Of a stretch of 64,000 bases of DNA, positions 7,399 to 49,200 are shown in pieces. The stretch covers positions 25,816-89,815 of the forward strand of contig SUVB01000051.1 in the NCBI GenBank assembly GCA_015062205.1, written 5' to 3'. The notes below the pieces were generated by a model. That model did not search any database and had not been told where the DNA came from. It saw only the letters and a program-made list of their open reading frames with translations. Each line of letters opens with the position of its first letter. Position 1 is the first letter of the stretch. This stretch comes from Desulfovibrio desulfuricans. GTDB taxonomy: Bacteria; Desulfobacterota; Desulfovibrionia; Desulfovibrionales; Desulfovibrionaceae. Both the position numbers and the translations under genes were made by a program.

Positions 7399-8352
7399 TC
7401 AGAAGGTCACGCCGCAGGGCGGGGGGAACGTTCCTTCCAGCGGCAGCTCGGGCAACATGAGAATCTGTTGCGCCACTGTGCGCATGAGGTCGTCGTTCCA
7501 GGGCAGGATATCGTAGATCTCCCCCACGCGCGCCACGGGACGGCTCTCGACCTCCCCGGCGTCGGAGAGAAAATAGAGCAGCATGCCCGAGTCCTCGTCG
7601 CCCTCCACATGCCGCGTGGAGCTGCCCCCAAGCGCCCAGCCGCCCGGCACGCGCAGGCAGCCCCGCAAAAAATGATCGCCGGTGACGCGCCAGGCCTGCG
7701 CGTGTTCCAGCCGCCCATCCCCGGCGGGCGTGAAGCGGTGGAACACGCCTTCCGCCGAAGAGCAGCAATAGATGTCGCCCCCGTGCTCCGTGACGGAATG
7801 CGGGCAGTTGAGCCCGGAAGCGGCAATGCTCGATACCGTCCGGCTGCCGTGACGCCTCATGTAAAAGAGCACGCCCAGGCCGTCCTGCTTCCAGCCGGGG
7901 CGGCCCTGCTTGAGAAAGGCGAAAGGCTGGTAGGAAAAGGCGGACGCCAGGATGCCGTCGCGCCAGGGGATCATGTCGTTCAAATGGATGGCGTCCGGCG
8001 GCAGGGGGCATTCCCAGCCGTCCAGAGGAGCGTATTCCATGAGGCGGCGCCCGTCGGCGTAGAGCAGCACGCGGGAATTGCCCGTATCCGCCACGCCGAG
8101 CGCATCCCGGCCCAGAGCCTTGACGCTGTGGGCCAGATTCTCATGCGGTCCCGGCAACGGGATGACGCGCGCGCCGTCCGCCCCCAGGCCGGTCAGCGTG
8201 TTGTCCGAGGCAATCCAGAGTCTGTCCGCCCCGGCGTGCACGCCGCACACGCGCAGACGGTTGCCGGGGCAGTACCAGAAGGGAACCCTGGCGTCCCAGT
8301 CATAGCCCACCAGAGAAACAGCGCTGTTCACGCAGCCGAGGAGCAGTTTCAT
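7399..8352 (-). CDS. Hypothetical beta-propeller-like protein, weakly DUF4915/TIGR03032-like
   Basis: Repeated short beta blades (HENLAHSV, HLND, GLNCPHSVTEHGGDIYCC, FLRGC, EIYDI); start at MKLLLG (8352). Confidence 0.5.
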   Translation of the reverse strand: MKLLLGCVNSAVSLVGYDWDARVPFWYCPGNRLRVCGVHAGADRLWIASDNTLTGLGADGARVIPLPGPHENLAHSVKALGRDALGVADTGNSRVLLYADGRRLMEYAPLDGWECPLPPDAIHLNDMIPWRDGILASAFSYQPFAFLKQGRPGWKQDGLGVLFYMRRHGSRTVSSIAASGLNCPHSVTEHGGDIYCCSSAEGVFHRFTPAGDGRLEHAQAWRVTGDHFLRGCLRVPGGWALGGSSTRHVEGDEDSGMLLYFLSDAGEVESRPVARVGEIYDILPWNDDLMRTVAQQILMLPELPLEGTFPPPCGVTF

Positions 8353-8502
8353 GACCACAAGCCTTTTTGTGTTGATGCGGGGGAAGGCTCTCAGGAGAGC
8401 CCGTGCCTGTCGCGCAGGTTTTTGGGGGGTGCGTCCGGCAGGCCGTCCGCCCTGCAGCAAAGCATAAAGCCTCCCCCGTTTCAAGGCGGGCTGCCGCCGG
8501 CT

Positions 8503-10068
8503 TCAGCGGCGACCGCTCGCGCGCAGCGCCTGCCGCAGCGTTTGCGCCACATCGGGAGCGTAGTAAGACTCCGCCAGCCCGGCAGTGAAGAGTATCTGCC
8601 GGTCATTGAGAACACCCCGACGAATGCCCTCCGTCAGCAGGGGCAAAAGCTCCCCGCCCACGCCCGCCGGAACCGAACAGGCCAGCATAAGATCCGCGGC
8701 CTCCGCTGAGGGGCGGAGGTTCCAGGCCCGACAGGCGAACTCCAGGCCTGTGTCCGGGCAGGGGTCATCGTCGCTCTTGGCGAATCCGAGCGCCAGGGAA
8801 TGTTCCATGATGCGGTAGATATGCCCCATGACGAGCAGATAGTCCGCCACATGGCGCGCATTGGCGAGCATGGCGGGAAGCGGCCTGCAGGCGCAGGCCC
8901 TTTCCGGCGGGATTTCCCGCAGGGCCGCAAGCGTCAGCGCGCCCGCCCCGGCCGTGTCATGTTCCCGCAGGCGCAGCAGGGCAAGCCGGAGGAAAGGGAA
9001 AGGCCCGGCCGTGCCGCACACGCTCCTGTACAGCTGTTCCGCCCGCCGCAGCCGTCCCCGCCGGATCTCCATGTCGCCCAGCAGCAGCACGCTCTCCACG
9101 TCTGCTGCCCTGCCCCCGGTAACAGCCATATTGAGAAGGCGCACAGGCTCCATGACGTCGCCGCCGAAACGCAGAAGATGCCGGCAGCGCGCACGGGCCT
9201 CGCGCAGGCGGCGCACATCCCCGTCCGCCCGCGCGTTGGCGGCGTCGCCACGCTCAAGGGCGGTCAGAAACTCTGCGGCGCGAACCCGTGACGTATGCCG
9301 CTCGCGGCAGACGCGCTGCCCCTCGGCGGCCATCCCTGCAAAGAGCGCCGGACGCGCCAGCATGTCCGCCGCGCGCTCCAGCAGATTGCCGGGCGTGAAA
9401 CAGACCAGGTGCTCCCCGTCCGCAAAGCAGTCGCGCAGGCCGTCGCCCTCTTCCGTCAGCAGCGGCGAGCCGGAGGCCAGCCCCTGAAACACGCGCAGCG
9501 TCAGCCCGTCAAACAGATTTTCATTGAGCACCGCAGCCGACGCAGCAAAGATATCCTGCATGACGTCCACAGAAACGCCCTGCCGCACACGTACGGGCAC
9601 ATGCCGCTGCAGCAGCGCGAGCAGGTTGACGCGCTTGCAGCGCTGCGGGGAGGTGAGCCCCACAAACGCCACCTCGCGCCGCCTTTCCGAAAGGGGCTTC
9701 CTGAAGCAGCCTTCGCCCACGCAGAGGGGCAGCCACATCGCCCGGATGCCCTGCGCCCCCAGCTGCGCCACAGAGGCTTTCTGATCCACAAACACATCAT
9801 CCGCCAGGCCGCATATGTCGCTCAGCCAGAACATGTTGAGGCTGGAATCAATGCAATAGAAAACGAGCCGCCCTTCAAAATCGTGCATATCAGCGGGCAG
9901 GGGGTGGCCGCCGTAGAGTTCCAGAATCGCCATATCCACCTTGCGCCCCGTCGCCGCAGCAGCCGCCGGCAGGCTTGCGCCGGACTCCGGCAGGGGAAAA
10001 AGTTCGTGCCCCAGCAGTTGCAGCCCCTCCCGCAGAAATCCCCCCTGGTACAAAATGTTCATGCGCAC
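8503..10068 (-). CDS. CgeB-like glycosyltransferase (Glyco_trans_1_2) with helical/TPR-like C-terminus
   Basis: VAFVG, S.AVLN, TLRVFQGLASGS.LLTE, F.DGEHLV.F, HT...RA pattern of CgeB-type GTs, followed by Ala/Leu-rich helical repeats. Confidence 0.75.
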   Translation of the reverse strand: MRMNILYQGGFLREGLQLLGHELFPLPESGASLPAAAAATGRKVDMAILELYGGHPLPADMHDFEGRLVFYCIDSSLNMFWLSDICGLADDVFVDQKASVAQLGAQGIRAMWLPLCVGEGCFRKPLSERRREVAFVGLTSPQRCKRVNLLALLQRHVPVRVRQGVSVDVMQDIFAASAAVLNENLFDGLTLRVFQGLASGSPLLTEEGDGLRDCFADGEHLVCFTPGNLLERAADMLARPALFAGMAAEGQRVCRERHTSRVRAAEFLTALERGDAANARADGDVRRLREARARCRHLLRFGGDVMEPVRLLNMAVTGGRAADVESVLLLGDMEIRRGRLRRAEQLYRSVCGTAGPFPFLRLALLRLREHDTAGAGALTLAALREIPPERACACRPLPAMLANARHVADYLLVMGHIYRIMEHSLALGFAKSDDDPCPDTGLEFACRAWNLRPSAEAADLMLACSVPAGVGGELLPLLTEGIRRGVLNDRQILFTAGLAESYYAPDVAQTLRQALRASGRR

Positions 10069-34259: not shown

Positions 34260-37200
34260 CTATGTGGCAGAGGGGGCCCGGGACGCGTCCTGCTCCCGCA
34301 GCCTGCCGGGCCGGCACACGCAGTTGAGACGGCGCAAGTAGGCCTTGTGTTTGTCCAGGAAAAAGGCCAGGGGACGGGAAAATTCGCGCCCGAGGATGCC
34401 GTTCACCAGCAGCTGGCTTATTTCGCGCTCCCGTGTGAGCACAAGCTGGGAGCGCGCCAGCACGTTGCGGTCGGCCTCGGACATCTTGCGGATGAGCTGC
34501 CGGAACGCGTCCTGCGCGCGCGGCTGGTAGAACCACATGTACATCAGGTCCAGCGCATGGACGATGAAGGCGCGTTCCAGTTCCTTGCCGCGGGCTCCCC
34601 CGCTGCCGTTCAGCCCGCCGGTCCTGGCCAGCTTGACGAGAGCGTCCTCATCCGGAAAGAGCAGCTCAAGGTGCGTATAGCAGTCAAACAGCCCGGCCAG
34701 TTTGCTTTTATAATCCCAGCGGCGCATGCGCAGGTTTTCCTGACTGTCGGCATAGCCCTCAATGACGGAAGCCACGGTATCCGACGCCATCTTGGAAATG
34801 ATGGCCGCGCCGGGCACGAGGAAGAAGGCCGGGTCAGGCACATGCAGCAGCGCCGCCAGCTTATACAGCGTCACATTGTAAAGGGCGGCCACCGGAATGG
34901 CCAGCAGGCCGCGCGCCAGCGCCCCGGCCGACACCCGCCAGGAGAAGCCCAGCAGGGCATTGCGGCCGCAAAGATAGACGGCGTTGATGAAGCTCAATAC
35001 GCCGAACACGATCCACGGGCTTTGAGCCGTGGTGATGCCCAGCGTCCGTTCCAGCAGGCCCACGCGCACGAGCCCTTCCAGCAGCAGTACGGAAAAGCCC
35101 GTAAACATGAGCGAATTGCACAGACGGTTGACGTTGATCTGGTCTTTCCAGTGGATGAGCGCGCCCGGAGAAGCCCCGCGCGCCGCCACGACCATTTGCG
35201 TCACCGTGCGCACGCCGTTGATGCCGAACCAGATGAACGAGCCGAACCAGGCCAGGAACCACCATTCCTGCGTATACATGAAGGTCATAAACGCCGGCAA
35301 AAAGCCCAGCAGCACCTTGAGAAGATTGCCTCCCCTGAGGTAGGCCAGGCCCGGCGAGGCTTTCCGGCCCGCGTCCGTCCCAGCGCCGGAGGTCCGGGCA
35401 AGGCCGTTGTCGCGGGCAAGGCTCAGCCCGCCGAGATTGAGCACGTTGCCCTGGGGGCAGACGCGAAAGCCCACGCTGGCGGTTTTCCAGACGCGGCGCT
35501 GTTCCAGGCCCAGATGCGCGCAGCCGGGCAAATGCCGCAGAGCCCGCAGGGTGCGCTGCCAGAATGTGGGATTGCGGGGTTTGCTGTAGCGGATGAGTTC
35601 CTCAACCGGCGTACAGATGGGCAGTTCGGGCTGACGCCGTTCCCTGGGGCGGTCGTAGAACCTGCGGCCGCGCGCGGGCAGCGTGTCGCGCAGAACGAAG
35701 CCCATGCCGTAGGAGGCGCGGCTCACCGAACTGGTGCCCAGCCGCGACCCCAGGGGCTTGTTGCGGTAATGCTCCCACAGCTTGGGCACGTTGTGCAATA
35801 TCTGCCGGAACTTGGCCGCGCGCTCTTCGTCCCTGTCGCGCATGCGGCGCGCCATCTCGCGTATCATCTGCTTGACGCGCGGTCCCACGCCCTCGTTGAG
35901 GGCCTGCTGCAGGTCGCTGATGGCCTTGAGGCTGGCGTGCCTGCCCTCCATCCAGCCGCGCATGTTGAAAATTTCCAGATGGCTGATGCTGCCGCCGCTG
36001 TCCCAGAGGAGTTCAGCCACATCTTCCGCGCTCAGCCCGGCCGTGGTCAGCACAAGCCGGTAGCCGGGCGTAAGGTCGGCCAGCTCGCGCGTGAGGTCCC
36101 CCGGCGAAAGGCGCAGCAGCGCGGGCAGGTCGGCCGTCCGGCAGGGCCGGGCGAGATCGGGCAGCTCCGGGTGTTCCTGCGGGGAGAGCCAGTGGTCGGC
36201 GATGTATTCCGCGTTGAGCGCATCCAGGCATTCCAACTCCACGCGGGCGTCCTCGTCGCCCCGTTCCGCAAGCAGAGCCGCGCGCCGCCGCAGCGCGGGG
36301 AGCACATGCTGGTGCAGCGCCTCGGCAAGATGCAGGGCAGAGGCCTGCCCCCGGCCCACATGGCGCAAAAAATTCTCGGGCGTCAGTTCAGGCACGGGGG
36401 TTTCCCATTGCGCCGCCAGCAGGGGACGCTGCCTTTCGTTCCACAGGGCCAGGCATTGCAGCACCCGCCCCCGCCGCCAGCGCAGCACCTCCCGCCCGAG
36501 ACGCATGATGCCGGCCACCTTGGGGCTGTGCAGAAATTCCAGAAAATCCTCGTCGGAACTGAAGCCGCGCGGAATCCAGAGCAGGCTGATAAAACGGCCG
36601 TAAAAGGGCGCCTGGAATTCCAGGCCGATGCGCACATTGATGCCGGTGATCTCCGCAGCGCTCAGGATTTCCCTGGCGGCGTCCGGCTGAACCCAGTACT
36701 CATAGGCCACCGTCAGGGAGCGCATGCCCTTGATCCAGGCGTCCATGATCAGATGGGTGGGCGTTTTGCGCCCCTTGGTGTTGGCGTCATACACATGGTC
36801 GTCAAAGGCAAGCTGGTTCCAGCTTTCCGGCATTTCCGGCAGATGGTAGCGGGCCAGCATGTGCCGCACCACCTTGGGCGACCCCTGCATGGTGCGGCGA
36901 AAATCATGGGCCAGCTTGAGCTGTTCCAGCTCGTCGCCGTGGGCGCGCACCATGCCCTTCATGATCTGCATAAGCGCCCGCGCCGTATTGCGCCGCAGCG
37001 TGGTGTGCGCGCTGTTCAGCACCTCGTCATACAGGGTGCGCAGGGCCAGCAGACGGTCGCGGGCTTGGGTGCGCCCGGTCTGGAGATTGCGCAGCAGGTT
37101 GACCACGGCATAGGCCATGCGCGAAACCGGCGTGGCCACCAGTTCCTTGATGCCGTGCGGATGCAGGCTGGGATCGAAAAGAAAGGTTTCGGAAGGGTCG

Positions 37201-37286
37201 CCGTCCGACGCAAGGATGTTGTTGACCAGGGTGAGGATGTCCCTGTCCTGCCGGTCAAAATAAATGCCGTCCCATGTGCCGCTCAC
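34260..37286 (-). CDS. Large hypothetical protein (~1008 aa): degenerate PHP-like domain plus multi-pass membrane region
   Basis: GTG start with AAGGAG RBS; PHP-like spacing FDDHVY...TP.HLI.DA..KG.RSL.V...I.GLEF, later HLEIFN; hydrophobic helices in C-terminal third. Confidence 0.7.
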   Translation of the reverse strand: MSGTWDGIYFDRQDRDILTLVNNILASDGDPSETFLFDPSLHPHGIKELVATPVSRMAYAVVNLLRNLQTGRTQARDRLLALRTLYDEVLNSAHTTLRRNTARALMQIMKGMVRAHGDELEQLKLAHDFRRTMQGSPKVVRHMLARYHLPEMPESWNQLAFDDHVYDANTKGRKTPTHLIMDAWIKGMRSLTVAYEYWVQPDAAREILSAAEITGINVRIGLEFQAPFYGRFISLLWIPRGFSSDEDFLEFLHSPKVAGIMRLGREVLRWRRGRVLQCLALWNERQRPLLAAQWETPVPELTPENFLRHVGRGQASALHLAEALHQHVLPALRRRAALLAERGDEDARVELECLDALNAEYIADHWLSPQEHPELPDLARPCRTADLPALLRLSPGDLTRELADLTPGYRLVLTTAGLSAEDVAELLWDSGGSISHLEIFNMRGWMEGRHASLKAISDLQQALNEGVGPRVKQMIREMARRMRDRDEERAAKFRQILHNVPKLWEHYRNKPLGSRLGTSSVSRASYGMGFVLRDTLPARGRRFYDRPRERRQPELPICTPVEELIRYSKPRNPTFWQRTLRALRHLPGCAHLGLEQRRVWKTASVGFRVCPQGNVLNLGGLSLARDNGLARTSGAGTDAGRKASPGLAYLRGGNLLKVLLGFLPAFMTFMYTQEWWFLAWFGSFIWFGINGVRTVTQMVVAARGASPGALIHWKDQINVNRLCNSLMFTGFSVLLLEGLVRVGLLERTLGITTAQSPWIVFGVLSFINAVYLCGRNALLGFSWRVSAGALARGLLAIPVAALYNVTLYKLAALLHVPDPAFFLVPGAAIISKMASDTVASVIEGYADSQENLRMRRWDYKSKLAGLFDCYTHLELLFPDEDALVKLARTGGLNGSGGARGKELERAFIVHALDLMYMWFYQPRAQDAFRQLIRKMSEADRNVLARSQLVLTREREISQLLVNGILGREFSRPLAFFLDKHKAYLRRLNCVCRPGRLREQDASRAPSAT

Positions 37287-37748
37287 GCCCGCATCTCCTT
37301 GCTCCGTCGAAAAGCCGCGTGTGCGGGGCGGCGCACGGCTTCCGCAGCGGAAGCGCCGTCCCGCCCGGCGACGCATGCCGTCCGCCCCAAGCTTACCATA
37401 ATTTCTATGCGTTACCGCGACGCGGCGTCAACGTCAAACCCTTCATCCCGCGCGAAACGGCCTTGCACGGCGGCTCGGCATGCGCCCTGCCGCACGTGGC
37501 CCGAAGGCCCGGGGTTTGCTGCAGCGGAACGGACAGAAAGGCTGAACGCGGATTTTCCCACAACACCCGCCTGTTCCGGCGGCTGTAAACAGATACGCCG
37601 CGTTGCAACTGAAGGAGGGAAACAGCGTGTCCCGCGCTCCTGCCGCTGCGACGGCAGAGCATTGCCCGTTACGGGGCGTTGCGGGCAATAGCGGCAGGAG
37701 CGGCTGCGTATGCGGGCTGCGACGACGGGACAGTGCGGCGCCGATGGG

Positions 37749-38507
37749 CTAGAAGGCCTTGCCGCCGAAAATCCTGTCCTTCAGCGAGGGCTTTTCCGCC
37801 GCGCCGGGATCCACCCAGTTCAGGACGACATGGCCCATGTCCCAGGCGAGGGAGCGCACGATGAAGCCGGGGGGATCGCCGGGATTGCGCTCATGGATGG
37901 AGAAGAGGTAAAAATCGTGCTTCGCGCGGCCCTCCATGAGCCCGGCCTGGGCCATGGACCAGAGCTGCGAACCGGAACGCGCGTCATAGATTTCCACGGC
38001 CAGCGAGACGGAACTCAGGCCGCTGTTGCCGCCGTCCACATATTCGTTGATGTAGCCGCCCACCACCAACTCCGCCCCGCGGGCCCGGGCAAGGGCAATG
38101 GCGCGGGAGGGCTCGTAGGGGCCGGCGCCGCTCGCGTATTCCAGCGAATGGAAGGCGTTGAGCGAAAGCCAGACCTGCCAGAACTGGCGTGAAATCATGT
38201 CGCCGAAGCTCACGGGGTCGGCAATCTGCTGCACAACGCGGAAGGGCACGAAAAGCGCGCGCGGGCGGTGGCCGATATCTCCCAGCGGGGCCACATAGAC
38301 GGCCGGGGGCTGCCGGTGCGCGAAGTTGTTGATCTCAATCTGGTAGGGCGTGCGCAGGTCGCCGCTGACCCGGTATATCCTGCGGCTGTCGTCCGGGGCC
38401 TTGGCGCAGGAACAGGCCAGGGACAGGGTCAGCATCACAAGAAACGCCCGGCGCAGAATGCGCCATGCGAGGCAGAGGCCGCCAAACCGCACAACCTGAT
38501 GTTTCAT
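37749..38507 (-). CDS. Hypothetical lipoprotein (possibly LpoB/PelC/CsgG-like fold)
   Basis: Lipobox-like LACSCA; GAELVVGGYINEY...VSLAVEIYDARSG.QLWS pattern; start could be a later Met. Confidence 0.55.
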   Translation of the reverse strand: MKHQVVRFGGLCLAWRILRRAFLVMLTLSLACSCAKAPDDSRRIYRVSGDLRTPYQIEINNFAHRQPPAVYVAPLGDIGHRPRALFVPFRVVQQIADPVSFGDMISRQFWQVWLSLNAFHSLEYASGAGPYEPSRAIALARARGAELVVGGYINEYVDGGNSGLSSVSLAVEIYDARSGSQLWSMAQAGLMEGRAKHDFYLFSIHERNPGDPPGFIVRSLAWDMGHVVLNWVDPGAAEKPSLKDRIFGGKAF

Positions 38508-39762: not shown

Positions 39763-40051
39763 GCAGTGCTCCTTGAAAAGCCGGCCCGACGGCCGGCGGA
39801 AATCGCATCCCATTCTAGCCGCAGCCCCCCGGGCTGGCAAGCGCAGCGGCGCGGAGGCCGCGCCTGCGGTCTTTCATTTATGAAAAACGGCTGGCTCCAC
39901 AACCTCTCGGCGCGGGCCGTTTCACAAACGGCGGGGCATACCGCCCCCCGGCCGGGCACTGGACCCCTTGCCGCCTTTTTGCCACAATCGCGCCGATGTT
40001 TCTGCAAAAGGAACGCATGCGCTGTCGTTCCCGCCGCTCAAGGAGGCCGCC

Positions 40052-41317
40052 ATGTCCGAAACGCCCAAGGGCCTGCGCCTGCACATCGCCCTCTTCGGCC
40101 GCAGCAATGTGGGCAAGTCCTCGCTGCTCAACGCGCTCACGGGGCAGCAGGCGTCCATCGTGTCGGCCGCGCCCGGCACCACCACGGACCCAGTGGAAAA
40201 AACGCTGGAGCTGCCCCCCCTGGGGCCTGTGGTCTTTCTGGATACGGCCGGGCTGGACGACAGCGGCGAGCTGGGCCGTCTGCGCACGGAGCGCAGCCTG
40301 CAGATCATGGAACGCGCCGACGTGGCCCTGCTGGTGACGGAAAAGACGGCCTGGGGACCGCACGAGGCGCGCATCGCCGCACTGCTGCAGGAACGGAACA
40401 TCCCCTTTGCGGTGGCGCGCAACAAGATGGACGCCCCGGCGGACGCGCCCCCCCCCTGTCCGGCAGGCGCGGGGGATGAGCCGGGCATCCCCGGCGGGCC
40501 GGACGCCGCCGTGCCCGTCATTGACGTTTCGGCCCGCAGCGGCCTCGGGCTGGACGCCGTGCGCGCGGCGCTGGCGCAGCTTGCCCCGGAGAGCGCCCTG
40601 CAGCAGCCGCCCCTGCTCGGCGACCTGCTGCCCGAACACGGCCTGCTGGTGCTGGTGGCGCCCATCGACACGGGCGCGCCCAAGGGCCGCCTCATCCTGC
40701 CGCAGGTGCAGGCCGTCCGTGACAGCCTGGACAGCCGCAAGCTCTGCATGGTTGTGACGGAGGGGGACCTGCCCCGCGCGCTGGACAGCCTGAAACGCGC
40801 GCCGGATCTGGTGGTCTGTGATTCGCAGGTCGTGCGCAGGGTCAATGAGGACACGCCGCCCCACATTCCCCTGACCACATTTTCCGTGCTCATGGCCCGC
40901 CTCAAGGGCGACCTGCCCGCGCTGGCGCGAGGCGCGGCGGTTCTGGAACGGCTCCGGCCCGACGACGCGGTGCGCATTCAGGAAGCCTGTTCTCACCACC
41001 CGCAGAAGGACGACATCGCTCGCGTCAAACTGCCGCGCCTGCTGCACAGGCTGGCCGGGGGCGAGTTGCGCATCGCGCTGGACGCCGGCAAGGAATTTCC
41101 GCGCTATGCTGCGGACTGCAGGGTCGTCGTGCACTGCGGCGGCTGCGTCATCACGCGCGGCCAGATGCTGGCCCGCCTGCGCGCCGCCGAAAAGGCGGGC
41201 TGCCCCATGACCAATTACGGCATGGCCATTGCTCTGGCGCAGGGCGTGCTGGAGCGGGTGCTCTCCCCCTTCCCCGAAGCGCTGCGCGCCTTCAGGGAAA
41301 CGCGGGCGGGGGGCTGA
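40052..41317 (+). CDS. hydF: [FeFe]-hydrogenase H-cluster maturation GTPase
   Basis: GRSNVGKSS, GTTTDPV, DTAG, NKMD, APKGRLILPQVQ, CSHH...HCGGC Fe-S motif. Confidence 0.95.
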   Translation: MSETPKGLRLHIALFGRSNVGKSSLLNALTGQQASIVSAAPGTTTDPVEKTLELPPLGPVVFLDTAGLDDSGELGRLRTERSLQIMERADVALLVTEKTAWGPHEARIAALLQERNIPFAVARNKMDAPADAPPPCPAGAGDEPGIPGGPDAAVPVIDVSARSGLGLDAVRAALAQLAPESALQQPPLLGDLLPEHGLLVLVAPIDTGAPKGRLILPQVQAVRDSLDSRKLCMVVTEGDLPRALDSLKRAPDLVVCDSQVVRRVNEDTPPHIPLTTFSVLMARLKGDLPALARGAAVLERLRPDDAVRIQEACSHHPQKDDIARVKLPRLLHRLAGGELRIALDAGKEFPRYAADCRVVVHCGGCVITRGQMLARLRAAEKAGCPMTNYGMAIALAQGVLERVLSPFPEALRAFRETRAGG

Positions 41318-41437: not shown

Positions 41438-41932
41438 ATGCTGCACACGCTCGCGCGCAGGGTCGCGGCCCTGCTGTTCGATCCGCAATTCCTCCGCTTT
41501 CTGCTCTTCGGCGGCATTGCCACCCTGGTCAGCTTCTTCGGCGGCTTCGCGCTCTATGCCTTCTGCTCCGTGCCCTACGCCCCGGCGGTCTTCATTGGTT
41601 CGGCCGCCGCCATCTTCGTCAATTTCGCCCTCAACTACGTGTTCAATTTCCACTACCACGGACGGTCCATGCAGGCCCAGTTCATCACCTTCGCCTCCGT
41701 GGCCGGCATCGGCACCGTCCTGACCACCCTGCTGGCCAAGGGGCTGCTGCACGCGGGCCTGTGGCTCTTCCCCGCCTGCGGCCTGCTGGATGTGGAAGTC
41801 GTCTGCCACGTCCTCGCCATCGGCATCGTCACGTTCTATTCCTTTTTCGCCCACAAATACCTGAGCTTCAATGCGGGCATTCTCGCCCCGCTGAAAAAGC
41901 TCCTTGACCGCACGGGGCGGGGCGGCCGCTAG
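41438..41932 (+). CDS. GtrA family flippase-like membrane protein
   Basis: FLRFLLFGGIATLV, NF.LN..FNF, F..FA.V, YSF..HKYLSF; 4 TM; start may be 41411. Confidence 0.85.
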   Translation: MLHTLARRVAALLFDPQFLRFLLFGGIATLVSFFGGFALYAFCSVPYAPAVFIGSAAAIFVNFALNYVFNFHYHGRSMQAQFITFASVAGIGTVLTTLLAKGLLHAGLWLFPACGLLDVEVVCHVLAIGIVTFYSFFAHKYLSFNAGILAPLKKLLDRTGRGGR

Positions 41933-41987
41933 ACGCCCGCCCCGCAGGCGCGGAAACAGCGGCAGGGAACACGGCCGGAACAGGCGT

Positions 41988-43607
41988 TCAGCGGCGGCGC
42001 AGGAGCAGCCACTCCGCATTCTCGAAAAGCAGGTCGCCCGCGCCCAGCAGTTCTTCCCGGCAGTCCACGCTTCGCGTCAGCAGGAGGGGCGCTTCACCAT
42101 CCTTCCACAGCGTGATCCATCCGCGCGGGTCCGCGGCCATGACGCGCTGCATGTCCACCCAGCGCCGGGCGATTTCCGGCTCCTTGGCGTAGTAGATGAT
42201 GTTGCCGTCCTTGTGCACCGGGCTCATGGGGCAATGCGCCGCATAGCGCACGGCCATGAGGTCATTGTTGCTGAACACCAGTTCTCCCGGCCGGATATGC
42301 CGCCGCAGCGCCGACAGCGCCTCCATCTGCAGGGCTCCGGCCCGGACCATGCCCCGGCCCTCGGCGGTATCCAGAGCGGCAAAGCCCGAGACTTCGGCCA
42401 AGCAGTGCCGGGCGGCCAGCACCTGCTTGTCCTGCGAAACAAAAAACAGGCAGAGGGCCAGGCCGAACGCCGCCCCGCCCCGCAGCAGCGCCGGCAGCTT
42501 CGGCCAGACAAGGGCCAGCGCCGCCGTTGCCGCCAACCAGGAAAGGGGAATCAGGAAACGCGTGCCGCGCAGTATCTCCTGGCTGTAATTGTTGCGGCCG
42601 AGGATCGACGTCAGCCATATCTCCAGCGCACAGAGCACGCACATGCCCGCCATGCCCAGCGCCATGCCGGGCATGAGCGCCAGCAGGCTTTGCAGCCGCC
42701 CGGAGAGCCGCGCCCGGTTTTTCCAGGCGATCCACCAGCAGAGCGCGCCTAAGGGCAGCACCGGCTGCGTGAGGCTGTAGTGGGCAAGGATCTCCCGCAG
42801 CGAGAGCCACAGGTTCTGGAAATCCTCCGCAAAACGGAACGCGCGCACCTGGGCGAACAGCGCTTCGTCATGGGGCTGGGCGAGCATGCCGCCCAGCAGC
42901 CACCAGAGGTAGGCCGCCACGGGCAGGGCAAAACAGCCGGCGCAGAGCAGCCAGTGGGCGGCATGCCTGCGCCACGGCCGCCCCTGCGGCAGGAGGGCGA
43001 AGGCCATGAGCAGCATGGGGCCGAACATGAGCGTGCTGACCGTGTGCACATTGACGGCGCAGCCCGTGAGCAGCAGCACAAGGGGGCGCAGGGCGACACG
43101 GCGCACGGCGAGACAGGCCCCCATGAGCAGCAGCGGCCAGAGGTCGGCGAAAAAAATCCGGGGTATCGGGTCCGAATGCAGATTGCCCCAGAAGGTGCCG
43201 TAGGCCCAGTAGACGGTAATGCTCATGAGCAGAGAGAGAACGGCCGCCAGTGAAGGCCTGCCGAACAGCCAGCGCCCCAGCGCGTAATACATGAGAAAAT
43301 GCAGGAAGATGCCCAGGCTGCCGACGTACAGCAGGTTGGTGGGGGCGTGATCCGTGGGGGAAAGCCAGCCCGCCAAGTCGGTGAGCAGGTTGGGAACCCC
43401 CGGCTCGTGCGGGAACAGGGGAACCACCGGATCCGCGGCAAAGGCTTCGGGGTGAAGCCGCGCCTCCAGAATCTGGGCGTACCATTGCAGATCGCTGTCG
43501 ATATTGACGGCCCGGGGATTCATTGCCAGCGTGCCGTTGAGGGCGGCCAGACAAAACAGCCCTGCAAGCAGGACAAAAAGACCGTCAGCCAGTATGGTGC
43601 GTGACAT
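41988..43607 (-). CDS. Polytopic membrane protein, candidate GT-C fold glycosyltransferase (GtrII/ArnT-like role)
   Basis: About 11-13 hydrophobic segments, acidic DSD in first loop after TM1, C-terminal soluble domain; flanked by gtrA-like and GT2 genes. Confidence 0.55.
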   Translation of the reverse strand: MSRTILADGLFVLLAGLFCLAALNGTLAMNPRAVNIDSDLQWYAQILEARLHPEAFAADPVVPLFPHEPGVPNLLTDLAGWLSPTDHAPTNLLYVGSLGIFLHFLMYYALGRWLFGRPSLAAVLSLLMSITVYWAYGTFWGNLHSDPIPRIFFADLWPLLLMGACLAVRRVALRPLVLLLTGCAVNVHTVSTLMFGPMLLMAFALLPQGRPWRRHAAHWLLCAGCFALPVAAYLWWLLGGMLAQPHDEALFAQVRAFRFAEDFQNLWLSLREILAHYSLTQPVLPLGALCWWIAWKNRARLSGRLQSLLALMPGMALGMAGMCVLCALEIWLTSILGRNNYSQEILRGTRFLIPLSWLAATAALALVWPKLPALLRGGAAFGLALCLFFVSQDKQVLAARHCLAEVSGFAALDTAEGRGMVRAGALQMEALSALRRHIRPGELVFSNNDLMAVRYAAHCPMSPVHKDGNIIYYAKEPEIARRWVDMQRVMAADPRGWITLWKDGEAPLLLTRSVDCREELLGAGDLLFENAEWLLLRRR

Positions 43608-43764
43608 GGGAAAAGCCGCCCGTTGAAGAAAGAAACGCATAATATTGCGGTTTCATACATATTATGGCAAAAAGAAACATTCAAGAACAATTTTATCCGC
43701 ACCGGCTCCGTTCCGTCCCCCCCGCCACTGGACGCGCGGGGGCAGATGCACTAGCCTTGTCCAG

Positions 43765-44517
43765 ATGAACACGCTTTTTCTTTTCGCGCACCAGGACGAC
43801 GAGTACGGCGTCTTCGCCAAGCTCCACGAGCATTGCCGTCGGGGCGACGCCGTCCACTGCGCCTACCTGACCGACGGCGGCCCCCTGGCCCCGCGCCGCT
43901 GCCGGGAATCGCTGGCCGTGCTGGCCGACCTGGGCGTGGTGACGGCGCATGTACACTTTCCCGGCTGCGACGGCTCATGGCGGGACGGCAGGCTGTACGA
44001 ACACTATGCGGACTGCTGCCGCTGGCTGGCCCGCCTGCTGGCCGGACTGGCCCCCGTGGGCGATGTGTACGTTCCCGCCTGGGAGGGCGGGCATCAGGAC
44101 CATGATACGGTCCATGCCGCCGCCGTGGCCGCCGTGGCCCGGATGGAACAGCCGGCCCGCCTCTGGCAGTTCCCGCTGTACAACGGCTGGCGCTGTTCCC
44201 GGCCCCTGTTCCGAACCATGCTGCCGCTGCCCGGCAACGGCCCCGTGCGGCGCGACCCCATTCCCCCGGCCCTGCGCCCCCGCTATGTACGCCTCTGCCT
44301 GCGCTACCCCTCCCAGTGGAAAACTTGGCTTGGGCTCTTCATCCCCGTGGCCCTGCGCTATCTTGTCACGGGCGCGCAGCAGACGCAGGCGGTCCCGCTC
44401 CGGCGCCGGGGCAGGCCGCATGAGGGGCCGCTGCTCTACGAACGCCGCGGCGTCTGCACGTGGGAAACCCTCAACGCCGCGCTGGATACCGACCCCTTCG
44501 AGGTGCGCCATGAGTGA
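43765..44517 (+). CDS. PIG-L/LmbE family de-N-acetylase
   Basis: FAHQDDE and GGHQDH metal-binding motifs, LTDG. Confidence 0.85.
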   Translation: MNTLFLFAHQDDEYGVFAKLHEHCRRGDAVHCAYLTDGGPLAPRRCRESLAVLADLGVVTAHVHFPGCDGSWRDGRLYEHYADCCRWLARLLAGLAPVGDVYVPAWEGGHQDHDTVHAAAVAAVARMEQPARLWQFPLYNGWRCSRPLFRTMLPLPGNGPVRRDPIPPALRPRYVRLCLRYPSQWKTWLGLFIPVALRYLVTGAQQTQAVPLRRRGRPHEGPLLYERRGVCTWETLNAALDTDPFEVRHE

Positions 44518-45514
44518 ACACGGCATCGCTGTCGTCATCCCCTGTTTCAAATGCCGCCGCCACATTCTGGACGTGCTGCGCCGCATGGGCAAGGAAGTGC
44601 GCCGCATCTACGTGGTGGACGACTGCTGCCCCGAAGGCACGGGCCGCCTTGTGCAGGAAGAAGTCAGCGATCCCCGCGTGCGCGTGCTGTTCAATGAGAG
44701 AAACCTCGGCGTGGGCGGGGCCGTCATGCGCGGCTACCGCGCGGCGCTGGAAGAGCCGGAGAACCGGATCATCGTCAAGATCGACGGCGACGGGCAGATG
44801 GACCCGGCCCTGCTTTCCCGTTTCACGGCCCCCATCCGCCGGGGCCTGGCCGACTACGCCAAGGGTAACCGCTTCTACAATCTGGACCAGGTGTTCCGCA
44901 TGCCCAAGATACGCATCTTCGGCAATGTGGCGCTGTCCTTCCTCTCCAAGTTTTCCACCGGATACTGGCAGATTTTCGACTTCACCAACGGCTACACGGC
45001 CATTGCCAGGGAAGTGGTCAGCCGTCTGGATTTCGACAAGATCGACAAGCGCTATTTCTTCGAGTCGGACATGCTCTTCCGCCTGAACATCATCCGCGCC
45101 GTGGTGGTGGACATTCCCATGTCGGCGCGCTACGGCGACGAAAAAAGCAACCTGAGCATAGCCAACTGCGTGGGCCGGTTCTTCTTCAAGCACTGCGCCA
45201 ACATGGTGAAGCGCATTTTCTACAACTATTTTCTGCGCGACCTTTCGCTGGCGTCCCTGGAGTTGCTGCTGGGTCTGTTTTTTGCCGTCTGGGGCTGCCT
45301 GTTCGGCGGCTTCACCTGGTGGAACGCGCTGGAGCAGAATCTCACCACCCCGGCGGGCACGGCCATCCTGGCGGGCACCATGATTATCGTCGGCCTGCAG
45401 CTCCTGCTGGGCTTTTTCGCCTATGACATGGCCAACGCGCCCACACGCCCGCTGCACCTGCTTTACGACGACAGGGACGAGCCGCCCTCCCCCGACGAGG
45501 CCGGGCAGGCGTGA
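44510..45514 (+). CDS. GT2 polyprenol-phosphate glycosyltransferase (GtrB/ArnC/Dpm1-like)
   Basis: VVIPCF, VVDD..PEGT, NLGVGGA, KIDGDGQMDP (DxD), D..NGY, FESDML; two C-terminal TM helices; overlaps the deacetylase stop. Confidence 0.9.
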   Translation: MSEHGIAVVIPCFKCRRHILDVLRRMGKEVRRIYVVDDCCPEGTGRLVQEEVSDPRVRVLFNERNLGVGGAVMRGYRAALEEPENRIIVKIDGDGQMDPALLSRFTAPIRRGLADYAKGNRFYNLDQVFRMPKIRIFGNVALSFLSKFSTGYWQIFDFTNGYTAIAREVVSRLDFDKIDKRYFFESDMLFRLNIIRAVVVDIPMSARYGDEKSNLSIANCVGRFFFKHCANMVKRIFYNYFLRDLSLASLELLLGLFFAVWGCLFGGFTWWNALEQNLTTPAGTAILAGTMIIVGLQLLLGFFAYDMANAPTRPLHLLYDDRDEPPSPDEAGQA

Positions 45515-45647
45515 CGCGGCCGTCCGCAGCCCCTGCCTGCGCAGTGCCGCACAGGAGAGCGCAGCCCCTCCGGGCGATGGAGCAGGGCCGGCGCGCCGGG
45601 AGCATCAGCCCCGGCAAAAGCGCGCGACCGCAACTGTCGGGGGAACT

Positions 45648-46763
45648 ATGGCGCAGGGAACGGCACGGGAACTCCTGAACCGCCTGGCGCAAGAACGCCG
45701 TCTCGCATGGAAGGAGTGGCGCGCCCTGCTGGCCGGGGCCGGGGAAGACGACCGCCGCTATGCCGCGCAGCTCGCGCGCGGCATAGCGCGCGCGGCCTTC
45801 GGCAACCGGGTCTGGTATCGCGGCATCGTCGAAATCACGAACCATTGCCGCAACAACTGCCGGTATTGCGGCATCCGCCGGGGGCATGCCGCCCTGCCGC
45901 GCTACCGCCTTTCCGACCGACAGATACTGGACTGCTGCGCGTCCGGCCATGCCCTGGGCATACGCACCTTTGTGCTGCAGGGCGGCGAAGACCCGTGGCA
46001 CACGGACGCGCGCCTCGTCCCCCTGCTGCACGAACTGCGCCGCCGCTTTCCGGACGCGGCCGTCACGCTTTCCCTGGGCGAGCGCAGCCGGGAAAGCTAC
46101 CGGCGCCTGTACGACGCCGGGGCGCGCCGCTATCTTTTGCGGCACGAGACGGCCGACCCGCGGCATTACCGCCTGCTGCACGCGCGCGGACAGGACTTTT
46201 GGCGGCGCATGGAGTGCCTGCACGCCCTGCGCGACACGGGCTACCAGACCGGCTGCGGCATGATGGTCGGCTCGCCGGGACAAAACGCGGACTCGTTGGC
46301 GGACGACATGACATTCATGCAGGAATTCCGCCCGCAGATGATCGGCCTGGGGCCGTTTCTGCCGCACCATGCCACGCCCTTTCGCAGGCATCCCGCGGGA
46401 GACGCGGGGCTGACGCTCTTTCTGCTGAGCCTGTGCCGCATCATGTTCCCGCGGGTGCTGCTGCCCGCCACCACGGCCCTGCGGACGCTCCTGCCCGACG
46501 GCCTCACGCGGGGCCTTGAGGCCGGGTGCAATGTGGTCATGCCCAACCTGACGCCTGCGGCAGGCCGCGGCTACCGGCTGTACGACGGGAAACCCGATGC
46601 CGGCGACGCGCGCGAAAGCCTGTGCGCCCTCGGGCGGGAACTGGCGGCGGCAGGGTATGCGCCGGCCTCCGGCAGGGGCGACTACGCGCCGGAGGACGGC
46701 CCGGTCGGCGTGCAAGCCCGCGGGGGCGAGGGGCCGACCGAAGGGCCGGTCATGCCGTCGTGA
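45648..46763 (+). CDS. hydE: [FeFe]-hydrogenase maturation radical SAM protein
   Basis: RGIVEITNHCRNNCRYCGIR, LQGGED, YLLRHET, G.GPF.PH, PATTAL, NVVMPN. Confidence 0.88.
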   Translation: MAQGTARELLNRLAQERRLAWKEWRALLAGAGEDDRRYAAQLARGIARAAFGNRVWYRGIVEITNHCRNNCRYCGIRRGHAALPRYRLSDRQILDCCASGHALGIRTFVLQGGEDPWHTDARLVPLLHELRRRFPDAAVTLSLGERSRESYRRLYDAGARRYLLRHETADPRHYRLLHARGQDFWRRMECLHALRDTGYQTGCGMMVGSPGQNADSLADDMTFMQEFRPQMIGLGPFLPHHATPFRRHPAGDAGLTLFLLSLCRIMFPRVLLPATTALRTLLPDGLTRGLEAGCNVVMPNLTPAAGRGYRLYDGKPDAGDARESLCALGRELAAAGYAPASGRGDYAPEDGPVGVQARGGEGPTEGPVMPS

Positions 46764-46863: not shown

Positions 46864-49200
46864 ATGAAGACCCTGCGGATAGAAGTGCGCGGCATTGTGC
46901 AGGGGGTCGGCTTCCGCCCCTTTGTGCACCGCGCGGCCGACGCCTGCGGGGTCAGGGGCAGCGTGGCCAACAGGGGTTCCTACGTGGAGATATTCGCCCA
47001 GGGCACGCGGGACAGGGTGGAACGGCTCCTCGGCATGCTCCGCAACGAGCCGCCGGAACGCTCGCTGGTCATGAAGATTTCCGCCACGGAAACGGATATC
47101 CCCGAAGCGCGGGAATTCGCCATTGTGGAGAGCGCGCGGGAAGAGGGCGACATCTTCGTCTCGCCGGACATCGCCACCTGCCCCCGCTGCCGGGAGGAGC
47201 TGTTCAATCCCGGCGACCGGCGCTACCTGCACCCCTTCATCAACTGCACGGCCTGCGGCCCGCGCCTGACCATTCTGGATTCCATGCCCTATGACCGCGA
47301 ACGCACCAGCATGGGAGCCTTCCCCATGTGCCGGGCCTGCGCGTGGGAATACACGCACGCCGAAACGCGCCGCTACGACGCCCAGCCCGTCTGCTGCAAC
47401 GACTGCGGCCCGCAGGTCTACATGCTCGACGGCGGGGAGCGCGGGGCCGCGGCCATCACGGCGGCGCGCCGCCGCATCATGGCGGGCGGCATCGTGGCCG
47501 TCAAGGGCATCGGCGGCTTCCACCTCTGCTGCGACGCGGGCAACGCCGCCGCCGTGGCCCGCCTGCGGCGGCTGAAACGCCGCCCGACCAAGCCCTTTGC
47601 CGTCATGCTGCGCGATATGGCCGCAGTGCGCCGCGAATGCGCAGCGGACACTGCGCGCGAGACCCTGCTGGACAGCTGGCAGAAGCCCATCGTGCTCCTG
47701 CCGCGGCGGGAGGGCGGCCGCCTCTGCGCCGGGACAGCGCCGGACAATCCCGCGGTGGGCGTCATGCTGCCCTATGCGCCCCTGCAGCTGCTGCTCTTCA
47801 CCTACCCCGACGATGTGCCCATGACGGACATGCTCGTCATGACCAGCGCCAACGCCTCCGGCGCGCCCATCTGCCGCACGGAGGAGGACGCCCGGCGGGA
47901 GATTTCCGGCTTCTGCGACGCCATCCTCTCCCATGACCGCGTCATCCGCCTGCGGGCCGACGATTCCGTCATGGATATCGTGGACGGGCAGCCCTCCATG
48001 ATCCGCCGGTCGCGCGGCTATGCGCCCCTGCCCTGCATCCTCTCCGGCGACTGGAAGGGCGCCGTGCTGGGCATCGGCGGCGAACTGAAGAACGCGTTCT
48101 GCCTGGGCCGCAACGAATTGTTCTACCTCTCGCCGCACATCGGCGACCTGGAGGACATCCGCACCGTGGAAGCCCTGCGCGCCTCCCTGACGCGCATGGA
48201 GGGGCTGCTGGAAATCCGGCCGCAACTGGCGGCCTGCGACCTGCATCCCCGCTACAACAGCGTGGCCGTGGCCGGGGATCTGGGCCTGCCGCTGCTGCCG
48301 GTGCAGCACCATTACGCGCACGTGGCCGCCTGCATGGCCGAGAACGACCGGCACGAGCCTGTCATCGGCGTTGCCTTCGACGGCACGGGCTACGGCTCGG
48401 ACGGGACAATCTGGGGCGGGGAACTGCTTGTGGCCGACTATGCGGGCTTCCGCCGCGCGGGGCACATCCGGCCCTTCACGCTGGCCGGGGGCGACGCCGC
48501 CGCCCGCGAGGGCTGGCGCGTGGCCGCGGCCATGCTGCAGGCCCTGCGCGGCGGGGACGCAGCGGAAGAGCTGCGCGCGCTCGGGGTCTGCCCGCCGGAG
48601 GAGGCCGCCGTGGTCCAGGCCATGACGTCAAAAAACATCAACTGTGTGCGCTCCACCAGCGCGGGCCGCCTGTTCGACGCCGTCAGCGCCCTGCTGGGCC
48701 TGCGGCGGGCCTCCACCTTTGAGGGCGAGGCTTCCATGGCGCTGCAGTTCGCGGCGGAGGCGCACTGGCGCACGGTCGGGCAGGAGCCGGGCGAGGCCAC
48801 GGCGCGCATGGCCGCCCGGCTGCACAAGGACGGGCGCGGCCCCCGGCTGGCGGAGGAAAACGGCGCGCCGGTGCTGCCCACGGAAACGCTTGTGGAAGAC
48901 CTGGCGGCAGCCCGGCTGAACGGGGAGCCCTCCGGCCCCCTGGCCGCGCGCTTCCACGCGGGGCTGGCCGCCATGATCACGGCCTGCTGCGAGCGCATCC
49001 GCGAAGATACCGGCCTTACGACCTGCGCCCTGACGGGGGGGGTGTTCCAGAACCGGCTGCTCTCCTCGGCCTGCGCCCGGCTGCTGGAACAGCGCGGTTT
49101 CCTCGTGCTGCGGCACAGCCTCGTGCCGCCCAACGACGGCGGCCTTGCCCTGGGGCAGGCCGTCATTGCCGCATGGCGGCTGCGGCACGGCCGGTTGTGA
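46864..49200 (+). CDS. hypF: Carbamoyltransferase HypF ([NiFe]-hydrogenase maturation)
   Basis: Acylphosphatase N-terminus (GIVQGVGFRPF), two CxxC-x18-CxxC zinc fingers, KGIGGFHL, QHHYAH, TSAGRLFDA, PPNDGGLALGQ. Confidence 0.97.
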   Translation: MKTLRIEVRGIVQGVGFRPFVHRAADACGVRGSVANRGSYVEIFAQGTRDRVERLLGMLRNEPPERSLVMKISATETDIPEAREFAIVESAREEGDIFVSPDIATCPRCREELFNPGDRRYLHPFINCTACGPRLTILDSMPYDRERTSMGAFPMCRACAWEYTHAETRRYDAQPVCCNDCGPQVYMLDGGERGAAAITAARRRIMAGGIVAVKGIGGFHLCCDAGNAAAVARLRRLKRRPTKPFAVMLRDMAAVRRECAADTARETLLDSWQKPIVLLPRREGGRLCAGTAPDNPAVGVMLPYAPLQLLLFTYPDDVPMTDMLVMTSANASGAPICRTEEDARREISGFCDAILSHDRVIRLRADDSVMDIVDGQPSMIRRSRGYAPLPCILSGDWKGAVLGIGGELKNAFCLGRNELFYLSPHIGDLEDIRTVEALRASLTRMEGLLEIRPQLAACDLHPRYNSVAVAGDLGLPLLPVQHHYAHVAACMAENDRHEPVIGVAFDGTGYGSDGTIWGGELLVADYAGFRRAGHIRPFTLAGGDAAAREGWRVAAAMLQALRGGDAAEELRALGVCPPEEAAVVQAMTSKNINCVRSTSAGRLFDAVSALLGLRRASTFEGEASMALQFAAEAHWRTVGQEPGEATARMAARLHKDGRGPRLAEENGAPVLPTETLVEDLAAARLNGEPSGPLAARFHAGLAAMITACCERIREDTGLTTCALTGGVFQNRLLSSACARLLEQRGFLVLRHSLVPPNDGGLALGQAVIAAWRLRHGRL

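Follow-up and report, generated by a model that had tools for sequence, protein, structure and literature searches.

A four-gene unit of Desulfovibrio that may edit and transfer a lipid-linked amino sugar

What do a deacetylase, a family 2 glycosyltransferase (GT2), a small GtrA-like membrane protein and a large polytopic protein make together when their genes adjoin? The question is raised by positions 41438–45514 of a 64,000-nucleotide stretch of Desulfovibrio desulfuricans DNA (contig SUVB01000051.1), which was analysed over its whole length and is called here the window. A preliminary description, made from the letters alone, had taken these four genes for a compact unit, and all four were indeed found there. 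We consider it moderately probable (roughly 0.6) that they constitute one periplasmic glycosylation pathway, in which a lipid-linked sugar is edited by deacetylation and then transferred. This reading is carried by the gene content, folds and motifs, by the co-inheritance of the deacetylase with its GT2, by the recurrence of the same four families with two different GT-C families, and by transcript-like coverage.

Four genes and their predicted products

One gene, on the minus strand at 41988–43607, encodes a polytopic protein of 539 amino acids (aa), for which we use the working name TM550. It has at least nine hydrophobic segments. It matched no family in Pfam or NCBIfam, it is not a member by sequence of the curated GT-C families (PMT, PMT_2, YfhO, GT87 and others), and its profile found nothing among the sequences of the Protein Data Bank (PDB). 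When 32 of its relatives were searched against Pfam at E ≤ 5, only noise was returned.

Its predicted structure was more informative. An AlphaFold2 model built from 32 aligned homologues, the most distant of them 38% identical, reached a predicted local distance difference test score (pLDDT) of 90.1 and a predicted template modelling score of 0.90. The preliminary description had suggested a GT-C-like transferase, and the only significant Foldseek matches of the product in the PDB were GT-C enzymes. At E ≤ 1e-3 there were six, namely two chains of AftA (8if8), ArnT in bound and apo forms (5f15 and 5ezm), and DPY19 (7zlh and 7zli). STT3 (E 1.6e-3 and 1.5e-2), ALG9, EmbB and Pmt4 followed more weakly (up to E 0.1). 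Taken together, the GT-C matches had E-values from 7e-6 to 0.1, probabilities of 0.95–1.0 and TM-scores of 0.34–0.49; the transporters in the same list had probabilities below 0.2. Modest TM-scores are usual between GT-C families that have the N-terminal module alone in common. On the strength of the model, we regard TM550 as a GT-C-fold protein and a putative periplasmic glycosyltransferase.

The acidic first loop noted earlier in this protein proved to hold two residues, D37 and D39, that are invariant in the 32 homologues. They lie in a helix after the first transmembrane segment (TM1), in the motif DSDLQxYAQ of the first extracytoplasmic loop; that this loop lies outside follows from R3, ahead of TM1, and from R112 and R116, behind TM2. 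The other invariant positions are G137-T138-x-W140-G141, R347-G348-x-R350 and K466-D467. The start of the gene at 43607 is backed by homologues of 539 aa and by RNA contigs that end at 43619–43626.

A full hidden Markov model search of a library of 1.84 billion proteins gave 488 representatives, and by this search TM550 is a real, small family that lacks a curated model. Some of its members (such as P0303 and P0215) are fusion proteins: a Wzx-like Polysacc_synt domain stands at the N-terminus of one, and F5/8-type-C and LamG carbohydrate-binding domains stand at the C-terminus of another. These partners fit a role in polysaccharide decoration; no fusion with a GT2 was seen among the fusions found. 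A scan of a genome collection with two short conserved peptides, a choice that limits its range, gave matches in Desulfovibrionaceae only. One fragment 63% identical to TM550 was present in an assembly of Desulfobulbus alkaliphilus DSM 24258, on a 397-bp contig with 0.88x coverage (L019); it is probably contamination and not a true occurrence outside Desulfovibrionaceae.

Across a spacer from TM550, the plus-strand gene at 43765–44517 encodes a 250-aa PIG-L/LmbE protein, first recognised by the motifs AHQDDE (residues 8–13) and HQDH (residues 110–113). It matches PF02585 with 48.6 bits (cut-off 28.2; E 1.5e-12) over profile positions 1–128 of 129. In 46 homologues H9, Q10, D11, D12, E13, H110, D112, H113 and D114 are invariant, and conservation spans all 250 residues. 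The sequence has no match in the PDB at E ≤ 0.1, so a fold search was needed. With the AlphaFold2 model (pLDDT 96) it gave 42 matches at E ≤ 1e-3, with TM-scores up to 0.64. All but one of these are LmbE-like (putative) de-N-acetylases, and the remaining one is GalB (5cgz), a 4-carboxy-2-hydroxymuconate hydratase of the same fold. Among the structural matches are diacetylchitobiose deacetylases, the teicoplanin deacetylase Orf2*, TT1542, MshB and BshB. Because the protein has neither a hydrophobic segment nor a signal peptide, it is expected to be cytoplasmic. Motifs and model together point to a soluble, metal-dependent de-N-acetylase of the LmbE fold with intact motifs, and we propose polyprenyl-phosphate-linked N-acetylhexosamine (HexNAc) as its substrate. 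In one metatranscriptome run (X13), a low-depth contig omits 204 nt (68 codons, in frame; window positions 44222–44427) inside the PIG-L gene, which may reflect either an internal deletion in some strain or a faulty assembly.

The PIG-L gene overlaps the next one (44510–45514, plus strand, 334 aa) by 8 nt, ATGAGTGA, and the two are predicted to be translationally coupled through this overlap, which the preliminary description had already pointed out. Fusions of PIG-L with GT2, of the Rosetta-stone kind, were not seen among the best 120 matches of either search. The second product had been described as a GtrB/ArnC-like GT2. It matches PF00535 (E 3e-18), is GtrB/DPMS-like and carries two C-terminal hydrophobic segments, predicted to be transmembrane helices. 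Its best sequence match in the PDB is the dolichol-phosphate-mannose synthase 5mlz, and it matches the PHROG 'GtrB-like O-antigen conversion' at 4e-10. The NCBIfam models AglJ and PpgS are reached below threshold; on the PpgS model NF058614 it scores 40.3 bits against a cut-off of 370, far below the level of a PpgS equivalog. By all criteria applied to its sequence, this GT2 classifies as a polyprenyl-phosphate glycosyltransferase.

The fourth gene (41438–41932, plus strand) encodes a 164-aa GtrA-like protein, as had been claimed, with four hydrophobic segments and a PF04138 score of 50.5 bits (cut-off 26.1; E 2.8e-13). It is a putative flippase or cofactor for a lipid-linked sugar.

The spacer between the two divergent gene pairs (43608–43764) has a GC content of 0.52. 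Its 81-nt core (43620–43700) has 0.33 against 0.67 for the window, which agrees with the AT-rich divergent spacer of the preliminary description. One sigma-70-like site was found in it, on the minus strand at 43670–43641, and the spacer is predicted to hold the promoters of both transcription units. Four runs labelled as metatranscriptomes hold 67–97% of the sampled words of this region. Contigs from three of these runs cover both units, stop at 43619–43626 and resume at 43667–43690. Since these breaks flank the AT-rich spacer, they fit divergent transcripts rather than contaminating DNA, and they also support the start codons at 43607 and 43765. This suggests that the unit is transcribed in faeces. 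One RNA contig begins at 43687, spans PIG-L, GT2 and the neighbouring hydE and reaches into hypF, so that read-through co-transcription of the PIG-L/GT2 pair with these maturase genes is possible.

Co-inheritance and chimeric origin of the unit

Seven Desulfovibrio loci (L001–L005, L027 and L028) hold all four genes in synteny, at 65–90% identity. The unit is kept in rumen and oral Desulfovibrio and in two genomic contexts. In L002, L003 and L005 its neighbours are hydF and hydE, the same as in the window, and the contig of L004 shows hydF on one flank and then ends. In the cultured isolate Desulfovibrio sp. OH1186_COT-070 (L001) it is found between a thioesterase/Tim44-like gene and mgtE. As the flanks of L001 are wholly different, the unit has moved as a block and its adjacency is not due to chance. 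The four families thus co-occur, as the preliminary description had supposed, in seven syntenic loci, and they recur in other phyla with an unrelated GT-C protein. In the rumen metagenome-assembled genome (MAG) that holds L005, a sodium:dicarboxylate symporter gene (7983–9293) stands between the TM550 gene and PIG-L and splits the divergent promoter region.

Remoter TM550 relatives (38–57% identity; L007 of D. piger ATCC 29098 and others) have no PIG-L beside them. They are followed by a GT2 of 320–345 aa; a GtrA gene is often near, and in some cases there are tandem paralogues and a Wzy_C-like gene. A membrane-anchored GT2 adjoins TM550 in all well-flanked relatives examined except L109, where GtrA alone is nearby. 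The presence of GT2 beside these relatives implies that the TM550 family depends on a donor made by a GT2, and the shared GT2 and GtrA neighbours mark the family as the transferase arm of Gtr-like three-component systems.

In L009, L014 and L018/L107, two or three diverged TM550 paralogues (33–43% identity to the window protein) stand in tandem, one of them broken and adjoining a transposase. Such tandem sets suggest that the repertoire of surface decorations varies.

The PIG-L subfamily reaches much further. At 44–50% identity it is widespread, with at least 798 matches in a word-limited search and 376 confirmed metagenome loci; named members come from Ramlibacter, Pseudoduganella, Cupriavidus and other Betaproteobacteria. 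To describe its company, we took those metagenome loci in which the PIG-L orthologue has 3 kb or more on either side, 23 in all, and counted partners within 6 kb. An orthologue of the window GT2 was present in 20 of the 23, a GNAT protein (Acetyltransf_9) in 19, GtrA in 15 and a DUF7024 protein of about 700 aa in 12. Most often the genes are arranged as GT2-GtrA-GNAT-PIG-L-DUF7024, and those for GNAT and PIG-L overlap. This module was seen in Betaproteobacteria and environmental metagenomes (L024, L037, L041–L047, L060, L065, L066, L074, L076, L080, L091, L101 and L111). In Cupriavidus basilensis it lies inside an O-antigen/exopolysaccharide cluster with Wzx, GT4 and rml genes.

The DUF7024 proteins carry PMT_2 (42 bits in L037 and 36 bits in L112, cut-off 26.1), which makes them GT-C enzymes. 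When TM550 was aligned with the DUF7024/PMT_2 proteins by hhalign, the probability was 1.9%, so that no homology between the two GT-C partners is detectable. The window unit thus resembles the betaproteobacterial module in its orthologous PIG-L (44–50%) and GT2 (48–57%) and in its four functional families. It differs in having no GNAT, an unrelated GT-C protein, another GtrA lineage and another gene order with divergent transcription.

The two pairs of genes trace to different sources. The window GT2 is 52–57% identical to the GT2s of PIG-L modules in Betaproteobacteria, but with the GT2s that partner TM550 in other Desulfovibrio it shares only about 25% identity. For GtrA the pattern is opposite: the window protein is 49–62% identical to GtrA of PIG-L-less TM550 loci (L006 and L010) and only marginally similar to GtrA of the betaproteobacterial module. 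From these opposite patterns the unit appears, in terms of sequence relationships, as a chimera, in which a donor-making pair (PIG-L and GT2) was joined to a resident Desulfovibrio delivery pair (GtrA and GT-C) and GNAT was lost. It would thus be a cut-down chimera of a widespread module and not an isolated Desulfovibrio invention.

Two further loci carry the same GT2 lineage in other company. In Pseudomonas nicosulfuronedens (L112, 7001–13720) a GT2 of this lineage (59% identity) heads a set that continues with GtrA, an SDR epimerase, an FAD oxidoreductase and a GT-C protein of the PMT_2/DUF7024 kind. By analogy with DprE1/DprE2, this set looks as if it would epimerise a lipid-linked sugar ahead of its transfer in the periplasm. 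In Achromobacter denitrificans (L110, 7001–10477) the genes after the GT2 encode an EamA-like protein of 113 aa and a membrane protein with DUF7657, adjoining sulfate-activation genes and a large sulfotransferase/RgpF protein; this may be a sulfated-glycan variant. Editing of a lipid-linked sugar between GT2 and GT-C seems, as far as gene content goes, to be a general design.

The proposed pathway and its alternatives

We propose that the four products would act in sequence. The membrane-anchored GT2 would load undecaprenyl phosphate, at the cytoplasmic face, with N-acetylhexosamine taken from a nucleotide sugar, and the cytoplasmic PIG-L protein, coupled to it, would strip the N-acetyl group from the lipid-linked sugar. 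The GtrA-family protein would aid the movement of the product to the periplasmic face, where the GT-C protein, by way of its D37/D39 loop, would pass the (amino)sugar to an acceptor in the envelope. In this scheme we infer which lipid is the carrier, that the sugar is HexNAc, how the steps follow one another, the membrane side of deacetylation, the acceptor and the free state of the amine.

The acceptor is most likely lipopolysaccharide (LPS) O-antigen, core or another surface polysaccharide, and less likely lipid A. A polysaccharide is favoured by the Wzx/GT4/rml cluster of Cupriavidus, by the Wzy_C-like neighbours, by the tandem paralogues and by the fusions with carbohydrate-binding and Wzx-like domains. 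The preliminary description had proposed a PIG-L pathway parallel to those that modify lipid A. Its architecture stood, with the GT-C fold, the joint travel of the genes, the recurrence of the four families and the intact PIG-L motifs; lipid A as the acceptor is less favoured by the context of the relatives.

Several points weigh against our reading. The function of the four proteins and of their close homologues is read from sequences and models alone. HexNAc as the sugar is suggested by the presence of a de-N-acetylase and by sub-threshold similarity of the GT2 to AglJ and PpgS, and by these only. The likeness of TM550 to GT-C enzymes is moderate in TM-score and comes with no sequence link to the GT-C models of Pfam. 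The GT2 lineage also occurs without PIG-L, so that the coupling of PIG-L to GT2 is one-sided. The transcription evidence consists of assembled contigs that carry no strand information and may contain DNA, and the hydrogenase-maturase neighbours in the window give no clue to the acceptor. Finally, the product of the ancestral module was probably re-acylated and not cationic: GNAT is present in most modules, and the ancestral function of the deacetylase was therefore probably N-acyl exchange. The betaproteobacterial module probably swaps the N-acyl group of a lipid-linked hexosamine before periplasmic transfer.

This last point leads to the alternative that survives best, although we hold it to be unlikely. 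The pathway would be the same, but the amine would be re-acylated by an acyltransferase encoded elsewhere, leaving a neutral sugar and an unchanged surface charge. In the parent module the GNAT gene overlaps the start of PIG-L in 19 of the 23 well-flanked loci, and in L025 PIG-L stands beside genes for acyl chains (AMP-binding, KAS III and SDR); both speak for such an exchange. In all seven syntenic Desulfovibrio loci, however, the unit holds no GNAT and PIG-L is coupled directly to GT2. The loss has been kept across a clade that has diverged to 65–75% identity, which suggests that the form without GNAT works as it is. The absence of GNAT from these seven loci makes a free amine plausible there.

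It is quite improbable that PIG-L acts on another cytoplasmic substrate, so that only shared transcription ties it to a plain Gtr-type system. The substrate would then be, for example, the HexNAc of nascent lipid A-core or a soluble N-acetylglucosamine (GlcNAc) conjugate, as for MshB and BshB, and the characterised LmbE-fold enzymes nearest in structure do use soluble substrates. There is also a published setting for the first possibility. In the LPS core cluster of Pseudomonas, the PIG-L family protein PA5002 (DnpA) adjoins PA5003 (Mig-14/GNAT-like) and has been proposed to de-N-acetylate HexNAc of nascent lipid A-core (PMC8005017, PMC13552734). This is the nearest published PIG-L in an LPS setting, and it is likened to the GNAT/PIG-L pair by gene context alone. 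Against such a substrate, the PIG-L subfamily stands beside one GT2 lineage in 20 of the 23 loci, across phyla, and is tied to GT2 by the 8-nt overlap. It entered Desulfovibrio together with GT2 and not with genes of core biosynthesis.

Even less probable is a free aminoglycolipid, made by GT2 and PIG-L on a glycerolipid and flipped by GtrA, with TM550 as, for example, a polymerase, ligase or transporter. Trios of synthase, deacetylase and flippase that make cationic membrane lipids are established: GpgSDF (glucosaminyl-phosphatidylglycerol of P. aeruginosa) and HexSDF (C. difficile) produce cationic or zwitterionic membrane glycoconjugates from a GlcNAc precursor (PMC12713373). These trios, however, use a GT4, a COG3233 deacetylase and a UPF0104 flippase, whereas the GT2 of the window is of the DPMS/GtrB/AglJ type with C-terminal transmembrane helices. 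The lipid is their end product and no GT-C transferase takes part. GT-C proteins of two unrelated families accompany the module described here, as a polyprenyl-phosphate-sugar donor predicts. We considered GpgSDF as a literature precedent for the unit and rejected it, as the families are unrelated.

Least probable of all is an accident that brought two unrelated divergent units together, because, for all that the pairs lie on opposite strands, differ in origin and are parted by a transporter gene in L005, the four genes stand together in seven loci, one of them in a wholly different context, TM550 relatives have a GT2 partner and the only GT2 nearby in this clade is the one coupled to PIG-L, and the same four families co-occur in Betaproteobacteria.

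Returning to a single pathway of donor editing and transfer, we tentatively suggest a broader view, at clearly less than even odds. The PIG-L subfamily may represent overlooked polyprenyl-phosphate-HexNAc de-N-acetylases that form, with a dedicated GT2, a portable cassette serving different GT-C proteins (PMT_2/DUF7024 in Betaproteobacteria and a family lacking a Pfam model in Desulfovibrio). The form without GNAT may put a free cationic hexosamine on the LPS of a sulfate reducer of the gut and so change those of its interactions with host peptides, phages and immunity that depend on charge.

Setting, known pathways and implications

The unit is wedged between genes of hydrogenase maturation. 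Upstream lies hydF (39968–41317), encoding an [FeFe]-hydrogenase maturase with HydF_dimer and HydF_tetramer domains; the downstream flank is a hydE-like radical-SAM gene (approximately 45640–46763), followed by hypF (46864–49200). Further upstream, two minus-strand open reading frames (34260–37376, 1038 aa, and 37749–38507, 252 aa) have no Pfam matches; the central region of the first is hydrophobic. Elsewhere within the window there are no second copies of PIG-L, GT2, GtrA or TM550 and no DUF7024 homologue.

No prophage context was found around the unit, nor any PmrAB/PhoPQ context for it. A tblastn search of PIG-L against the PLSDB plasmids gave no match at 1e-20, which leaves plasmid carriage without support. 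A dedicated anti-phage system was considered and rejected: PADLOC reported no defence system, and the GT2 gave only a marginal HEC-01A match (E 0.004). The closest relatives of the genes come from Desulfovibrio MAGs of goat, buffalo and reindeer rumen and from a canine oral isolate, and the window DNA is also present in faecal and sheep-gut metagenomes.

How does the proposed pathway relate to those already described? Amino sugars of lipid A are reportedly made by ArnC-ArnD-ArnE/F-ArnT (4-amino-4-deoxy-L-arabinose), by FlmF2-NaxD-FlmK of Francisella (galactosamine, GalN) and by LgmA-LgmC-LgmB of Bordetella (glucosamine). Their deacylases belong to other folds: ArnD is a NodB/CE4 enzyme, and NaxD and LgmC are of the YdjC type. 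The unit would share their logic, in which an N-acyl sugar is loaded on undecaprenyl phosphate by a GT2, freed of its acyl group by a cytoplasmic deacylase, flipped, and handed on in the periplasm by a GT-C enzyme; TM550 also has ArnT among its best structural matches. Unlike in these systems, the only hydrolase of the unit is PIG-L, with no match to Polysacc_deac_1 or YdjC. Its flippase candidate is a GtrA protein and not the SMR-type ArnE/F, and TM550 resembles ArnT in fold only, matching no PMT/PMT_2 (GT83) model by sequence. The Lgm genes (LgmABC) are covered in PMC4993483.

In its parts the unit also resembles GtrA-GtrB-GtrC, and likewise CsbB/YfhO and systems of the GacI/GacL type, which combine a GtrA protein, a GtrB-like GT2 and a variable polytopic transferase. 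The PIG-L-less relatives in D. piger-type genomes have exactly this three-component composition. The window unit goes beyond the three components in adding an editing enzyme coupled to GT2, and, unlike in plain Gtr systems, its transferase belongs to a family for which there is no curated model.

A further parallel is the GalN pathway of mycobacterial and corynebacterial arabinogalactan (PpgS Rv3631, Rv3632 and Rv3779), in which de-N-acetylation of a lipid-linked sugar is required and the deacetylase is 'as yet unidentified' (PMC9671496). A GT2 for polyprenyl-phosphate-HexNAc, a GtrA-like helper, a GT-C transferase and de-N-acetylation are common to both. The unit differs in encoding a candidate for the deacetylase, and its GT2 is not a PpgS orthologue.

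In the literature that we searched, no published PIG-L/LmbE enzyme was found in a GtrA, GT2, GT-C or undecaprenyl pathway, nor were papers on DUF7024. The betaproteobacterial GT2-GtrA-GNAT-PIG-L-GT-C module is apparently undescribed. What is known is the logic of the pathway, from Arn/Flm/Lgm and mycobacterial GalN; what is new is the LmbE fold in this role, the GT-C family and the modular cassette for editing a donor.

If the reading holds, LmbE would be the third deacylase fold that edits undecaprenyl-phosphate-linked amino sugars, and TM550 would add a new GT-C family. The analysis also brings to light, in Betaproteobacteria such as Cupriavidus and Pseudoduganella, a module that is widespread and unstudied. 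The PIG-L subfamily would offer a candidate family for missing deacetylases of lipid-linked HexNAc, such as the one of mycobacterial and corynebacterial arabinogalactan GalN (PMC9671496). For Desulfovibrio itself, the reading predicts that gut strains would differ in surface charge or antigenicity, as D. piger-type genomes have the transferase without PIG-L.

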